A DNA stretch of 42,079 bases from Candidatus Taylorbacteria bacterium RIFCSPLOWO2_02_FULL_44_35. GTDB lineage: Bacteria > Patescibacteriota > Minisyncoccia > Phycocordibacterales > DSPV01. Shown piece after piece: positions 17,234 to 22,351 of the stretch. Both the position numbers and the translations under genes were made by a program. The first letter of the stretch is position 1. Each line of letters opens with the position of its first letter. The DNA lies in assembly GCA_001822695.1 (NCBI GenBank), contig MHSF01000023.1, positions 1,257 to 43,335 of the forward strand, read 5' to 3'. The notes under the pieces were generated by a model, which worked only from the letters and a program-made list of their open reading frames with translations, was not told the DNA's origin and searched no databases.

Positions 17234-18247
17234 TTAGCACACAATCTGTTTTGCTCCCCAGAAATCAAGGATGGTTTCCGTTAATTGATAACAATTTCCA
17301 CACTTCAAAAGCCCGAGGTAAGAAGTGATTGATTCCTGTTTCGGATTTTCTACCAAACGCTTAAACATTCTTCTTTTTGTTGTCATCCGCAAAACTCGGT
17401 GGTTGGGAAAATGAACCCAACCCAAAAAATCCGCGCCCGAAGCAACAGTTTTGATAAAGATTTTATCAATATTAATTTCCAGTTTTAGTGTGTCCCGCAA
17501 AAAGTTTTTCATTTGGAACAAAATTTCCTCAAGCCAAGTCCTACTTTCCGAAAAAACAACAAAATCATCGGCGTAGCGGATGTAAAATTTCGCTTTTATC
17601 TTATGCTTCATAAATTGGTCAAATTCGTTAAGGTAAATGTTGGCGAATAATTGCGAAGTTAAATTGCCGAGTGGCAAACCTCTTCCGTAAAAACCAGCGG
17701 TGTAAAAACTGTTGATGATTTCAGCGAGAAGTTGAATAATTTCTTCATCAAAAATTCGCTTGCGTAAAATTCGCAATAAGATTCCGTGGTCAATATTGGC
17801 AAAAAACTTCCTGATGTCGCATTTCAAAACCCAACAGGATTTTGTATTGTTTTTGCTAACTTTCCAGACAAATGTACGAAAACGATTGATAGCTTTGTGA
17901 GTTCCTTTTTCGTTTCGGCAGGAAAAAGAATCGGCAATGAAAGTTTGGTCAAAAAATGGATAAAGTTTTCGATATACGGCTCGATGAAGCAAGCGGTCGC
18001 GAACACTTGCCTTGTGAATATTTCTTGGCTTCGGGTCAGAAATTCTGAAAGCTCGGTAACTACCGTGGCGATAGGTTTTTGCTCGCAAATCATTATGAAG
18101 CGAAATGACATTATCCATCAGACGCAAACTAAATTCCTGCACATCCAGCTTTTTTCTTTTTCCTTTCACAAATTCTCTCCAAGCGCCGAGCAAGTCTTCC
18201 AAAGAAATGATATCCTCGTAGCTATGGTTGAATTGAATCCCACTCAT
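17234..18247 (-). CDS. DGR reverse transcriptase (intact)
   Basis: LPLGNLTSQLFANIYLNEFD (DGR-diagnostic [IL]G.LTSQ motif), YADDFVVF catalytic box, and an N-terminal LLGAWREFVKGKRKK..PKPRNIHKASVRDRLLHRAV. Collinear with Bordetella phage Brt as recalled. The ATG at 18247 (MSGIQF) is preferred over 18322, which would overlap avd. Confidence 0.93.
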   Translation of the reverse strand: MSGIQFNHSYEDIISLEDLLGAWREFVKGKRKKLDVQEFSLRLMDNVISLHNDLRAKTYRHGSYRAFRISDPKPRNIHKASVRDRLLHRAVYRKLYPFFDQTFIADSFSCRNEKGTHKAINRFRTFVWKVSKNNTKSCWVLKCDIRKFFANIDHGILLRILRKRIFDEEIIQLLAEIINSFYTAGFYGRGLPLGNLTSQLFANIYLNEFDQFMKHKIKAKFYIRYADDFVVFSESRTWLEEILFQMKNFLRDTLKLEINIDKIFIKTVASGADFLGWVHFPNHRVLRMTTKRRMFKRLVENPKQESITSYLGLLKCGNCYQLTETILDFWGAKQIVC

Positions 18248-18277
18248 TCTATAAAGGTTACCCCCCCCCAACGCTTT
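18248..18277. promoter_or_regulatory. 30-bp RT/avd divergent spacer containing a C9 homopolymer (18261-18269)
   Basis: tctataaaggttaCCCCCCCCCaacgcttt lies between the RT ATG and the avd TTG. The paralogous spacer at 20629-20657 carries C8. Confidence 0.4.
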
Positions 18278-18661
18278 TTGCCAGTGGTGGAGAAACTTAA
18301 ACAAGGATATTTTCTTTGGCACCAGTGCCTTGAACTTTTGCCAAAGACCCAGAAATATTCCATTGGTAATCGTATAGATAAACTTTTGATTGAAAGTATT
18401 GAAGCCGCGGTAACTGCCACCTTTTTGCCAAAAGAGGAAAAACTGCCGTGGCTGCGATTAGCTATAAGAAAATTGGATACAGCAAAAGTTCTCCTTATGA
18501 TTGTGTGGGAAACAAAATCTTTGGATGATAAAAAAATCGTCGGGCTTTCAGAAATTTTAAATGATGCCGGTAAAATGCTCGGCGGTTGGAATGGCCAACT
18601 ACAAAAATACTTAAGAGAAAACTCCCCCAGAATTGCCCGAGGGCAAACGGGGGAGAAATGA
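18278..18661 (+). CDS. avd: Avd-like accessory variability determinant (four-helix-bundle protein), copy 1, TTG start
   Basis: LPKTQKYSIGNRID...KLDTAKVLL..WETKSLDDKK...LGGW. The same pattern appears in copy 2 at roughly half identical residues by eye. Only the 3' 384 nt of ORF 17786-18661 is used. Confidence 0.85.
   Translation: MPVVEKLKQGYFLWHQCLELLPKTQKYSIGNRIDKLLIESIEAAVTATFLPKEEKLPWLRLAIRKLDTAKVLLMIVWETKSLDDKKIVGLSEILNDAGKMLGGWNGQLQKYLRENSPRIARGQTGEK
18622..18655 (-). terminator. hairpin plus U-run immediately 3' of TR1, embedded in the avd1 3' end
   Basis: CTCCCCC...GGGGGAG outer stem with inner TTGCCC/GGGCAA. The minus-strand reading is followed by a T-run. The structure, but not the sequence, is conserved in cassette 2. 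Confidence 0.5.
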
Positions 18662-18667
18662 AGAGAG

Positions 18668-18793
18668 TTGCGACACGGCAAACGCAAACCCATTCTCATG
18701 ATTCCACTTGTTGTCGGGGTTGTCGTAGTAAGCGTTAAGCCACTGACCATTGTCGTTACGATTCGCGCTGAGCAGATTCGGGTCGCCGTCAGA
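18668..18793 (-). repeat. DGR template repeat TR1
   Basis: 126 nt. Asn-codon-rich (AAT/AAC) in the minus-strand sense. Aligns to 19122-19250 with 13 mismatches at TR adenines. Confidence 0.85.
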
Positions 18794-19021: not shown

Positions 19022-19058
19022 ATACAAAAACTCTCGCCTGCTTGACACGGGCGAGAGT
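19022..19058 (-). terminator. intrinsic terminator of target gene 1
   Basis: ACTCTCGCC / GGCGAGAGT 9-bp stem followed by TTTTTG on the minus strand. Confidence 0.65.
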
Positions 19059-19121
19059 GTGAAAAAACTTAAGTCAAGGGACAGAGGGCTAGCGCAAAGG
19101 GTCCTAGGACTTAGCTCTAAC

Positions 19122-19250
19122 TTGCGACACGGCAAACGCAAACCCACTCCCATGATTCCACTAGTTGTCGGGGCGGAAGTCGTCGTCCGCGTCAAGCCAC
19201 TGACCAGTGCCGCCACGACTCGCGCTGAGCAGACGCGGGTCGCCGTCAGA
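19122..19250 (-). repeat. DGR variable repeat VR1
   Basis: Adenine-poor counterpart of TR1, lying at the 3' end of the 19104-19730 reading frame. Confidence 0.85.
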
Positions 19251-19730
19251 GTCGTGCACGGGTTCGTGCATGGCAACGATCCAGATCAGCCCCATGGCTG
19301 CGATCTCCTTGTCCGTGAACTTCTCACGGATGAGGCAGACCAGTTCGGCGTTCGGCTTCGAGAGCTTGCGCTTGTCGGCCTCGGCGCGAATCTTCTTCGT
19401 GATCCGATCGTTGTCCTCGAAGAGCATGCCCTTGAGAACGGCGACTTCAGTCGTCATGCCATTGGTCGGCTTGAAGTCCGGCGAACGGAGCACCTGCTTG
19501 GCGTAGTTTCTGACGCGGAAACAGTTGCCTTCCAGACGCTTGATCCAGTCTTCGCCGGTCGTGCCGTCGGAGGTGACACTGAAGTAGATGACACCGTCTT
19601 CCTCGAGCCACGAACGGGTCGGTTCCGAAACCGAGAGTTCATTGCGGAGAAAACGGTCAACCCCTTCCTCCCCGCCGAGTTTGTTCCAGACCGCTTCCAC
19701 GCGGCCGAGGGTAATATCGGGATATTTCAT
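19161..19730 (-). CDS. DGR target protein 1 (C-terminal VR), currently truncated by an in-frame TAG inside VR1
   Basis: Protein-like 189-aa ORF. The frame continues for 18 more codons to 19104 after the TAG at 19161-19163. Full length would be 208 aa, identical to target 2. Confidence 0.8.
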   Translation of the reverse strand: MKYPDITLGRVEAVWNKLGGEEGVDRFLRNELSVSEPTRSWLEEDGVIYFSVTSDGTTGEDWIKRLEGNCFRVRNYAKQVLRSPDFKPTNGMTTEVAVLKGMLFEDNDRITKKIRAEADKRKLSKPNAELVCLIREKFTDKEIAAMGLIWIVAMHEPVHDSDGDPRLLSASRGGTGQWLDADDDFRPDN

Positions 19731-19918
19731 AATATAATTGCCTTTCGTTCAACTGCTAGTTGTGGTTTATTCACCTCTTCCAGAAGTGAATGCTAGGCCG
19801 TTGTGGTCATAGCCAGAAATCCCCAGAAAAGGTGAGGGACTTTTGGCTATGACCGCGGCAAGATTTCAAGGTTCATTGAATTATGGATTATTCTAACAAA
19901 CACCGCCCCAAATTTCTG
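19731..19918 (-). promoter_or_regulatory. structured 5' leader of target gene 1
   Basis: 11-bp stem GGTCATAGCCA/TGGCTATGACC (19805-19815 / 19844-19854), plus the TGAACCTTGAAA box shared with the other target leaders. Confidence 0.4.
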
Positions 19919-20029
19919 CCCGAAATACTACCATAATTGCGCCATAAAAGTCAAGCAAAAATACGAAATATGGCTTTAAATAAAGGTATCTTGGCAAGGG
20001 GAAAATACATAAATAAAAAGGAAGCCGCG
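19916..20029. repeat. 114-bp duplicated promoter module (copy 1)
   Basis: Near-identical to 22238-22351. The first ~68 nt are identical by eye. Confidence 0.85.
19925..19954 (-). promoter_or_regulatory. target-gene promoter (TTGACT-18 nt-TAGTAT)
   Basis: Lies within a 114-bp module near-identical to 22238-22351. A third target-like gene has TTGACA-17-TAGCAT at the equivalent place. Confidence 0.6.
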
Positions 20030-20117: not shown

Positions 20118-20628
20118 CTAACCATGTTCAAAAATTCGCTTGCGTAAAATTCGTAATAAGATTCCGTGGTCAATACTGGCAAAGAATTTTCTGATGTCGT
20201 ATTTCAAAATCCAGCAGGTCTTGGTGTTGTTTTTGCTGACTTTCCAAACAAATCTACGAAAACGGTTGATGGTTTTGTGAGTTCCCTTTTCGTTTCGGCA
20301 GGAAAAAGAATCGGCAATAAATGTCTGGTCAAAGAATGGGTAAAGTTTTCGGTAAACAGCACGATGAAGTAAGCGGTTGCGAGCACTTGCTTTGTGTATG
20401 TTTCTTGGCTTCGGGTCAGAAATTCTGAAAGCTCGGTAACCTACCGTGGCGATAGGTTTTTGCTCGCAAATCATTATGAAGCGAAATGACATTATCCATC
20501 AGACGCAAACTAAATTCCTGCACATCCAGCTTTTTTCTTTTTCCTTTCACGAATTCTTGCCAAGCGCCGAGCAAATTTTCTGAAGAAATGATATCCTCGT
20601 AACTATGGTTGAATTGAATCCCATTCAT
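20118..20628 (-). pseudogene. DGR reverse transcriptase stub (N-terminal ~170 codons, frameshifted, no catalytic motifs)
   Basis: About 90% nt identity to 17747-18247. One extra C near 20440 splits it into ORFs 20118-20492 and 20416-20724. Homology stops at 20128, so the LTSQ and YADD motifs are absent. Confidence 0.9.
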
Positions 20629-20657
20629 TCTATAAAGGTTACCCCCCCCAACGCTTT

Positions 20658-21020
20658 TTGCCAGTGGTGGAAAAAACTTTATCGGCATACAAACTCTGGC
20701 AGGAAATATTGAAACTTTTTCCAAAAACGACGCGCTATTCTCTAGGTATAAAGATTGATGTTCTTTTCATTGAAATTTTTGAGTCAATTTCGACCGCGGC
20801 ATTTGCCGCCAAAACTGAAAAATCACCTTGGGTTCGGCGGGCAATAATAAAACTAGATACTTTAAAAGGTCTGCTACGGATAGCGTGGGAAATCAAATCA
20901 CTGGATAACAAGAAATATATCACCTTATCAGAACAACTTTCTGAAATCGGCCGCCAGCTTGGCGGTTGGCATAATCAGATTATAAAACAAAACTCTCCCG
21001 CAAAAGCGGGAGAGAAATGA
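20658..21020 (+). CDS. avd: Avd-like accessory variability determinant, copy 2, TTG start
   Basis: 120 aa. FPKTTRYSLGIKID...KLDTLKGLL..WEIKSLDNKK...LGGW. Confidence 0.85.
   Translation: MPVVEKTLSAYKLWQEILKLFPKTTRYSLGIKIDVLFIEIFESISTAAFAAKTEKSPWVRRAIIKLDTLKGLLRIAWEIKSLDNKKYITLSEQLSEIGRQLGGWHNQIIKQNSPAKAGEK
20993..21014 (-). terminator. hairpin plus U-run immediately 3' of TR2, embedded in the avd2 3' end
   Basis: CTCTCCCGC aaaa GCGGGAGAG, a perfect 9-bp stem. The minus-strand reading is followed by TTTTGTTTTAT. Confidence 0.55.
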
Positions 21021-21024
21021 GGAT

Positions 21025-21158
21025 ACTGGCGGGCAGACCGCCGAAGGGTTGTAGTCGTTCCAATCGTTGTCAAGCCAGTTGTAATTCCAGTGCCACTTGC
21101 CATCATTCCAGTACAGATACAACACATAACGGTTACCGTTCGGATTACGAAGAATCGT
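21025..21158 (-). repeat. DGR template repeat TR2
   Basis: 134 nt, rich in AAC/AAT/TAT codons. Aligns without gaps to 21484-21617 (offset 459). Confidence 0.9.
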
Positions 21159-21467: not shown

Positions 21468-22094
21468 CTAGTTCTGAGGACTAACTTGCGGGCAGACCGC
21501 CGAAGGGTAGTAGTCGTACCAAGCGCGGTCAAGCCAGCGGTAATACCAGTGCCACTCGCCACCAGACCAGTCCAGAGACAACACAGAACGGTTACCGTAC
21601 GGACTACGAAGAATTGTGCCGTCAAAGAAAATATAGGTCGTATTGTCATTCGTCTTTTTCTTCCAACTTTCTGGAATAAGAGTTTTATCATTCCAGAGAG
21701 TCTCGAAAACCTTGGCGTTCAGACAAATGTGGCCCGCTTTCTTGAGACGCTTCAGCTTCTCCTCCCCGTTGATACTGATCTCATCTTTTTTGAGCATCGT
21801 CTCAAGACGAATTTTGCTGAAATCCACCTCTGTGAGAGCGAGCGACCGCTTGTCTTCCTCGTCTATGGTCCAACCACTACCGATAAACTCGGCGGGGTTG
21901 AAAGGGGTGGTGCGGTCGACGATGACCAGAATTCCAGCTTTCTGACTAAAGTGTTTGACCAAGTCGGACCAGAGGGGGTGGTCGGATGACTCGATGATAG
22001 ACTGAATTTCCTCCCCGTCTGCCTTCATTGCGCCAAGCTTTTCAGCGACAAGTTTCCCCATCTCAAACTGCTGACCGATTGTAATTATGTTCAT
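21468..22094 (-). CDS. DGR target protein 2 (C-terminal VR)
   Basis: 208 aa from the ATG at 22094 (MNIITIG). VR2 ends 13 nt before the stop codon. The N-terminal SSDHPLWSDLVKHFSQK motif is shared with the 28547-29189 paralogue. Confidence 0.85.
   Translation of the reverse strand: MNIITIGQQFEMGKLVAEKLGAMKADGEEIQSIIESSDHPLWSDLVKHFSQKAGILVIVDRTTPFNPAEFIGSGWTIDEEDKRSLALTEVDFSKIRLETMLKKDEISINGEEKLKRLKKAGHICLNAKVFETLWNDKTLIPESWKKKTNDNTTYIFFDGTILRSPYGNRSVLSLDWSGGEWHWYYRWLDRAWYDYYPSAVCPQVSPQN
21484..21617 (-). repeat. DGR variable repeat VR2
   Basis: 16 of 17 internal mismatches to TR2 are at TR adenines (hand alignment). Confidence 0.9.
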
Positions 22095-22240
22095 TCGTTG
22101 AAACCGCAATAACGGCGGACCGTGTCATCTCGTAGCGAGAGCTTATCGGCTGATCGTTAGTTGCGGAAAACAAACCATTTCATCAAAAAAACGGGTTGTA
22201 TTCCGCAACCAATTAAGCACTTTCAAAGTTCATTTAACTG
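22095..22240 (-). promoter_or_regulatory. structured 5' leader of target gene 2
   Basis: GTTGCGGAA...TTCCGCAAC hairpin (22160-22209), a conserved TCAGCCGATAAG box, and a third TTGCGG segment (22104-22109) next to the start codon. The same layout is seen at 29190-29337. Confidence 0.45.
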
Positions 22241-22351
22241 CCCGAAATACTACCATAATTGCGCCATAAAAGTCAAGCAAAAATACGAAATATGGCTTTA
22301 AATAAGGATATTTAGCAATAGAGAAATGCGTAAATAAAAGAGGAAGCCGCG
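22238..22351. repeat. 114-bp duplicated promoter module (copy 2)
   Basis: See 19916-20029. Confidence 0.85.
22247..22276 (-). promoter_or_regulatory. target-gene promoter (TTGACT-18 nt-TAGTAT), copy 2
   Basis: Identical to 19925-19954. Confidence 0.6.

Follow-up and report, generated by a model that had tools for sequence, protein, structure and literature searches.

A premature stop codon in the VR of a DGR target gene from a groundwater population of Patescibacteria

Two tandem DGR cassettes

The DNA analysed here, which we refer to as the window, is a stretch of 42,079 nt of contig MHSF01000023.1 (GCA_001822695.1) from Candidatus Taylorbacteria bacterium RIFCSPLOWO2_02_FULL_44_35. Its minus strand carries, at 17.2-22.1 kb, two DGR cassettes in tandem with a spacing of about 2,370 nt. 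They are flanked by housekeeping genes (ArgRS, glycosyltransferases, thymidylate kinase and SHMT), so the element is chromosomal. The host chromosome is that of a member of the Patescibacteria, of Parcubacteria type, and the named relatives are likewise Patescibacteria (Wolfebacteria, Vogelbacteria, Nomurabacteria and Parcubacteria MAGs). The features of the two cassettes, in window coordinates, are:

17234-18247, minus strand: DGR reverse transcriptase gene RT1, 337 aa from the ATG at 18247 (Pfam RVT_1, 7e-28)
18261-18269, no strand assigned: G/C homopolymer, 13 nt upstream of the RT1 ATG, with a length of 8, 9 or 10 across related contigs
18278-18661, plus strand: avd1, between TR1 and the RT gene (Pfam bAvd, 1.5e-7; NCBIfam DivGenRetAVD, 1.4e-13)
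18668-18793, minus strand: TR1, 126 nt with 33 adenines; sole stop-capable codon AAG at 18709-18707
near 19056-19030: likely terminator hairpin of cassette 1, read from the sequence
19730-19104, minus strand: target gene 1 of cassette 1, full frame
19161-19730, minus strand: truncated target-1 ORF, 189 aa (protein P0121)
19122-19250, minus strand: VR1, 129 nt, one codon longer than TR1
19174-19190, minus strand: non-canonical patch in VR1, GCT TAC TAC to GCG GAC GAC plus one extra codon beside a TR1 AAC
19161-19163, minus strand: premature stop TAG in VR1, opposite the TR1 AAG
19104-19160, minus strand: 18 orphaned codons, WNHGSGFAFAVSQVRAKS, and the original stop TAG (19106-19104)
19916-20029, minus strand: upstream region common to both targets, with its second copy at 22238-22351
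19954-19925, minus strand: promoter-like site in the shared upstream region, a consensus match only
20118-20724, minus strand: RT2 remnant, a frameshifted 5' fragment with about 510 nt missing at its 3' end
20658-21020, plus strand: avd2 (Pfam bAvd, 1.9e-12; NF033474, 5.7e-18)
21025-21158, minus strand: TR2; sole stop-capable codon AAG at 21098-21096
21468-22109, minus strand: target 2, with an ATG at 22094 and VR2 at 21484-21617; the codon opposite the TR2 AAG is GAG (21557-21555)

The element qualifies as a genuine, standard DGR of the CPR type, and its layout is unusual: avd is inverted, the cassette is duplicated and one RT is a remnant. The YADD and LGNLTSQ motifs can be read directly in the translation of RT1, and RT length is 337-362 aa; searches of RT1 against NCBIfam gave only sub-threshold matches, to other RT families. 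The Pfam model bAvd recognizes avd2 above and avd1 below its gathering score, and NF033474 (DivGenRetAVD) covers its full model length in both genes, yet under the curated cutoff.

With canonical DGRs (mtd/TR/avd/brt of Bordetella phage BPP-1, and those of Legionella and Treponema) the element shares an RT and Avd, a TR/VR pair with adenine-specific substitutions, a VR that is 3'-terminal in the target ORF and has an invariant 3' segment, and a TR dominated by AAC and AAT. It departs from them in carrying avd on the opposite strand between TR and RT, and in its duplicated cassette with a second RT remnant. In BPP-1, the variable TR adenines lie in AAY-type codons, which are unable to become stops, whereas each TR here has one stop-capable AAG. 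Because both avd genes face the other way between TR and RT, read-through of the avd mRNA would yield antisense TR RNA.

The duplication is visible in segment 20118-20724, which mirrors 17748-18268, and TR2, avd2 and target 2 are intact. As RT2 is a frameshifted 5' fragment, RT1 must serve the second cassette in trans. Four derived non-A changes common to the TR2 and VR2 of strain L011 show that TR-to-VR transfer has taken place in cassette 2, presumably through RT1 acting in trans.

Target gene 1 (19050-19650) has a G+C content of 58-61%, compared to about 37-47% in RT, avd and the flanking genes, and members of its family from several lineages of Patescibacteria share 70-96% identity. The compositional contrast and the cross-lineage identity suggest a horizontal spread of target 1 or of the cassette.

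The stop codon in VR1 and the lost C-terminus

According to the original prediction, an AAG in TR1 had become an in-frame TAG in VR1 at 19161-19163. The alignment bears this out: on the minus strand, the TR1 AAG (18709-18707) stands opposite the VR1 TAG (19163-19161), with a mismatch from A at 18709 to T at 19163. The reading frame does continue for the predicted 18 codons to the TAG at 19104-19106, giving a read-through length of 189+1+18 = 208 aa, although an open run of 18 codons is in itself not significant ((61/64)^18 ~0.42). It was also correct that both TRs retain an AAG, at 18709-18707 in TR1 and at 21098-21096 in TR2; in each case it is the only stop-capable codon of the TR and directly precedes a TGG. 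The equality in length between the intact target 1 and target 2, both 208 aa, holds numerically if target 2 is read from its ATG, but its ORF from TTG has 213 aa. Since the two proteins are unrelated in sequence, this match is a coincidence, and we rejected it as evidence for the intact length of target 1. The proper comparison is with the orthologs, which have 205-211 aa, and with the 207 aa found in the same strain.

VR1, which sits at the C-terminal end of target 1, carries the signature of adenine mutagenesis. In the window allele, 13 of the 33 TR1 adenines are altered but only 3 of the 93 other bases (Fisher p = 1e-6). The bias is stronger in intact sister alleles from related contigs, with 15/33 adenines against 0/93 other bases in L001 and L017 (p = 1e-10) and 9/33 against 0/93 in L018, and it recurs between VR2 and TR2, where 16 of 19 mismatches are at A. 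Not covered by the original prediction are one extra codon and three T-to-G differences to TR1, which are confined to 19190-19174 in the window allele. This patch is absent in L001, L017 and L018, and a donor for it was not found elsewhere in the window. A TAC-to-GAC difference of the same kind (T-to-G) exists between VR2 (21572) and TR2 (21113), where the VR2 of L011 keeps TAC.

At the 3' end of VR1, a GC-rich segment of 24 nt is identical to TR1 and homology stops right after it; we found no distinct IMH/IMH* pair at this boundary and no significant hairpin or cruciform downstream of VR1 (z = -0.04). An Rfam scan gave no relevant match, and ORFs overlapping the stop site on the other strand or in other frames had no family match. 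TAG is a normal terminator in this genome segment: the long ORFs of the window end in TAA (14), TGA (9) or TAG (6), and its long conserved genes run uninterrupted.

The stop removes a conserved part of the protein. The read-through product has 1,762 homologs, mostly of 205-211 aa, and 118 of the 120 homologs listed extend through a W-x4-G-F-A-F motif, the remaining two (P0009 and P0010) being the same TAG allele, which identifies the 18 codons cut off by the stop as the regular C-terminus of this protein family. The sister allele P0001 has the identical end, ...GFAFAVSQVRAKS. In an alignment of 127 diverse homologs, with 41-86% identity to P0001, residues W190, G195, F196, A197 and F198 are 91-99% conserved, and W190 and G195-F198 rank among the 37 best-conserved positions of the target-1 family. 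An AlphaFold2 model computed from the diverse alignment (A3) reached a pLDDT of 96.5 and a pTM of 0.86 and predicts a final β-strand of 11 residues (194-204); a shallow alignment (A2), in which all sequences are >70% identical, had given a useless model (pLDDT 53), and we therefore used A3 instead. By shortening the product from 207/208 to 189 aa, the stop takes away W190, the G-F-A-F motif and the last β-strand. Judging from conservation and predicted structure, the 189-aa product is probably defective.

Target 1 has no sequence match in Pfam, NCBIfam or PDB, and a profile search with A2 against PDB sequences returned nothing meaningful. In Foldseek searches of PDB and BFVD, C-type-lectin-like domains dominate the top lists with matches that are not significant (best E-values 0.04 and 0.1, TM ~0.2), which is suggestive of a C-type-lectin-like fold and no more. 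Within the family, four representatives of 50%-identity clusters (P0163, P0169, P0171 and P0278) are truncated or frameshifted within the VR region, thus defective VRs recur.

Alleles in the groundwater population

We compared the VR1 locus at the DNA level in 15 related contigs (L001, L002 and L007-L019). The TAG allele is present in 12 of these, in addition to the window, and L001, L017 and L018 have AAG at this position. VR1 is identical to that of the window in 11 contigs (L002 and L007-L016), and VR1 together with the 57 nt after the stop in ten (L007-L016); L019 has the same TAG allele with a single G-to-A substitution at 19234. The exact 189-aa product occurs on at least 23 contigs, including the two NCBI genomes GCA_001822705.1 and GCA_001820965.1, ENA assemblies and SPIRE re-assemblies (biosamples SAMN03842435 and 37 among them), a count that overstates independence, as many of the assemblies are re-assemblies of one study's samples; at least five distinct biosamples are represented. 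In L002 (SAMN03842430) and L019 (SAMN03842431), the TAG allele of VR1 is part of proteins that deviate slightly from this product (P0010 and P0122). In this groundwater population, TAG is the majority haplotype and the intact sense alleles are minor variants. The suggestion in the original prediction that the allele might be a dead end caught in the assembly is therefore half right: an accident of assembly it is not, nor is the TAG allele a transient variant.

The three contigs with AAG span 4.4-6.8 kb of the locus and differ from the window almost only inside VR1. They encode intact alleles of 207 aa, without the indel, whose differences to TR1 are at adenines alone. Flanking DNA differs by 0-2 substitutions per 6.5 kb between most contigs, and TR1 is identical across all related contigs. 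The coding sequence of RT1 shows no difference between L007-L010, L012, L013, L015, L016 and L019 on the one hand and the intact L001 and L017 on the other; L011 and L014 have eight substitutions each and L018 one. The eight in L014 are clustered, and we considered gene conversion from the RT2 remnant, which was rejected since only two of the eight match. Downstream of the TAG, the 57 nt deviate from the intact alleles at only three positions, all of them TR-adenine sites (19157, 19156 and 19150), and there is no decay, so that the further disabling changes expected of a pseudogene are absent. The variable alleles anticipated in the original prediction are thus found, with TAG and AAG coexisting in a near-identical background, and the outcome that would have spoken against it, TAG everywhere combined with downstream decay, is not what the contigs contain.

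In total, five VR1 alleles occur in this near-identical background. Those known at the DNA level differ at TR adenines, the patch aside; the fifth, P0125 (SRR3989344), is known as a protein only. Its 221 aa consist of the target-1 body, the patch (YADDDFRPDN), a K-WNHEN-GFAFAVSQ segment in the TR state and the 3' flank of TR1, corresponding to about 19730-19164 of the window joined to 18709-18611. Possible explanations for P0125 are recombination between VR and TR, a chimeric assembly, or the trace of a patch-bearing AAG allele. Two further sequences are mosaic: in L002 (positions 1-470, about 19867-19407 of the window), the TAG-bearing 3' half is fused to the 5' half of another family lineage, and P0009 has a third N-terminus before the same TAG-bearing part. 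Their composition indicates recombination between family members or chimeric assembly.

A more distant locus, L005 (2545-3800, about 88% nucleotide identity), has the target directly followed by ArgRS and lacks TR, avd, RT and the second cassette; its VR contains a non-A change (GFALAV), as expected of a frozen orphan VR. A scan of genome contigs with the VR 3' end found nothing, and a metagenome scan detected more distant relatives only, all with sense codons at the stop site. L004 (6902-7147) contains an unrelated 97-nt tandem repeat in about 2.5 copies.

The homopolymer at 18261-18269, which also lies about 8 nt upstream of the TTG of avd1 on the other strand, is polymorphic: it is G8 in L001, L007, L009, L010, L017 and L018, G9 in the window, L002, L011-L014 and L019, and G10 in L008, L015 and L016. 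All three intact VR1 alleles occur with G8. The paralogous tract of cassette 2 (20642-20649) is G8 in 13 of the 13 contigs covering it. The tract may be a site of slipped-strand control of RT/avd expression, or its variation may be technical noise.

Origin of the stop and its meaning

The explanation we favour, and regard as probable, is that the TAG is a by-product: a nonsense allele written by homing, which has become dominant in an otherwise intact DGR. In this process, TR1 RNA would be copied into cDNA by the RT-Avd complex, with near-random bases inserted opposite template adenines, and the cDNA would overwrite VR1 at the 3' end of target gene 1. Copying the first adenine of the TR1 AAG as T would yield TAG; with adenine substitution rates of 0.27-0.45, as in these alleles, this outcome is expected in about 6-8% of homing events. 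The VR tract around the stop is a copy of TR1 altered specifically at adenines, so the stop is almost certainly the work of retrohoming; we infer that the T at 19163 came from homing and not from spontaneous mutation. The event would be an expected failure mode of adenine mutagenesis in a known kind of element, and it calls for no new mechanism.

Comparison of the alleles suggests that this homing event was recent, partial and anchored at the 3' end. The window allele equals L001 in the 5' part of VR1 (19250-19189) and differs from it in the 3' part (19188-19150), where, relative to the sister alleles, it is back in the TR state at 19168, 19165, 19157 and 19156. This return fits a new TR-templated copy and not random mutation. 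The intact sister alleles have CTC, GGC and GAC states in common with the outgroup L005 and thus look older. The latest homing on the window allele would accordingly have rewritten roughly 19188 to 19122, leaving most adenines in the TR state and writing the TAG in the same event. Two observations run counter to so simple a history. All four alleles have AGT at the last variable codon, for which a new 3' tract would need a coincidence of 10-15% or selection, and L001 is a mosaic of the 5' part of the TAG allele and the 3' part of L017, possibly a recombinant or an assembly chimera, so that the genealogy of the alleles is not clean.

The patch sits at the 5' border of the tract that would have been rewritten, where a non-canonical slip could have produced the three T-to-G changes and the extra codon beside AAC. 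As adenine mutagenesis does not explain these changes, either a process other than the DGR touched VR1 or the RT slipped. Wu et al. 2018 described non-A substitutions in 23% of DGRs, with multiple such changes being frequent in CPR DGRs, and TR/VR length differences in 7%, mostly beside AAC and ascribed to template slippage (PMC5758913). The DGRs of CPR/Patescibacteria in that survey come from the same host group, have small target proteins and likewise show multiple non-A substitutions and 3-nt indels beside a TR AAC (PMC5758913). By this analogy the patch would be in line with the non-canonical mutagenesis described for DGRs.

After its origin, the nonsense allele would have escaped purging as an accidental by-product and become the majority haplotype, with the intact alleles minor. 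A later homing could overwrite the stop, and its reversion appears possible in principle, since TR1, avd, RT and the invariant 24-nt 3' end of VR1 are intact.

That the TAG instead arose by a spontaneous A-to-T point mutation after the last homing, unrelated to the DGR, and marks plain pseudogenisation, is in our view distinctly unlikely. VR1 has undergone changes at bases other than adenine, namely the three T-to-G substitutions and the 3-nt insertion, with the G-to-A at 19234 in the L019 sub-variant, and the TAG allele is stable over many samples. However, with flanks that are near-invariant at 0-2 substitutions per 6.5 kb, a spontaneous hit on this one codon is very unlikely compared to 6-8% per homing, and the stop falls inside the very tract that appears freshly returned to the TR state. 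At the border of this tract, the non-A changes crowd into about 15 nt and resemble a single event, and the 57 nt downstream of the stop are undecayed.

The undecayed downstream frame would also be expected if the TAG were read through or recoded and full-length protein were still made, but the youth of the TAG allele explains it equally well. Against read-through, six of the window's 29 long ORFs terminate in TAG, among them target 1 at its normal stop and target 2; the window contains no tRNA gene, hence no suppressor candidate, and a hairpin search and Rfam found no recoding signal or structured RNA. We consider this very improbable. Scarcely credible at all is an artefact of assembly or consensus, in which collapsed reads from VR variants created a TAG absent from every actual molecule. 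Short-read assembly is known to struggle with VRs, and L001, L002 and P0125 resemble mosaics; yet the same 129-nt haplotype of VR1 was obtained through different pipelines (NCBI genomes, k141 MEGAHIT-style ENA assemblies and SPIRE re-assemblies), from several biosamples and on contigs of 12-72 kb.

The original prediction went further and proposed that the element switches its target OFF stochastically and ON again at a later homing. In this reading, the stop-capable AAG is kept by selection so that the DGR can turn its targets OFF (TAG) and ON, and the dominant TAG is an adaptive OFF state. Both TRs hold exactly one AAG, placed before TGG, and in the target-2 family this codon is conserved family-wide in the TR, the corresponding protein column containing R41, E36, Q16, G12 and K8. 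TAG and AAG alleles exist side by side in one clonal background, the homing machinery and the 3' end of VR are intact, and the OFF allele is the majority form. The coexistence of the alleles supports the ON-to-OFF half of the proposal, which is the only direction supported. We found no OFF-to-ON event, and the sole sequence combining the patch with a sense codon, P0125, was assembled at the protein level and continues into the flank of TR1. In the wider target-1 family, moreover, AGG, a codon from which no stop can arise, predominates at this TR position (column R72, G34, W4, K2, E5), and the TR of the relative L021 has AGG at the stop site, so the AAG of the window is a recent lineage-specific change of the TR and not a conserved design feature. 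In the target-2 family, none of 120 homologs ends at the AAG site, against an expectation of 6-8% per homing (binomial p ~5e-5 to 6e-4), and nonsense alleles are therefore normally purged there. Little switching is visible, given that VR1 is identical over 11 contigs (L002 and L007-L016) and differs by one substitution in L019; on the timescale sampled, VR1 was rewritten rarely. Under the switch reading, the G8-10 tract upstream of RT might have stabilised the OFF state of the TAG allele by lowering homing. We regard a selected, reversible switch as unlikely overall.

Classical phase variation by slipped-strand homopolymers or invertible promoters likewise produces a heritable ON/OFF difference at one locus in a clonal population, and the polymorphic G8-10 tract adjoining the RT gene adds a likeness to the homopolymer systems. 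Here, in contrast, OFF is a random outcome at one codon (about 6-8% per event), without a dedicated two-state mechanism. DGR targets that are degraded or orphaned, such as L005 and the frameshifted P0171 and P0278, share a defective or frozen VR and belong to the same protein family; in the window, by contrast, TR, avd and RT are all intact and no decay is seen past the stop.

In DGRs, AAC and AAT codons dominate TRs (PMC5758913), and Wu et al. 2018 left out loci with premature stops as probably inactive (PMC5758913). The locus described here bears on this curation practice, as its stop lies in an otherwise intact and, by the comparison of alleles, recently active element, with intact alleles in the population. 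If the switch reading were true, improbable as we hold it to be, a DGR could act as a stochastic ON/OFF switch besides its role as diversifier, with homing silencing the target and later homing restoring it, and the dominant TAG allele would represent an adaptive OFF state of the aquifer population. Public read data exist from several samples, and the target-1 locus offers a testable case for the frequency of homing in situ in CPR bacteria and for the rewriting of nonsense alleles. As the probable by-product of homing, the TAG allele provides a clean natural example of the cost of DGR hypermutation, in which a stop-capable TR codon did become a stop and the resulting nonsense allele came to dominate a wild population in which the machinery that could repair it is still intact.
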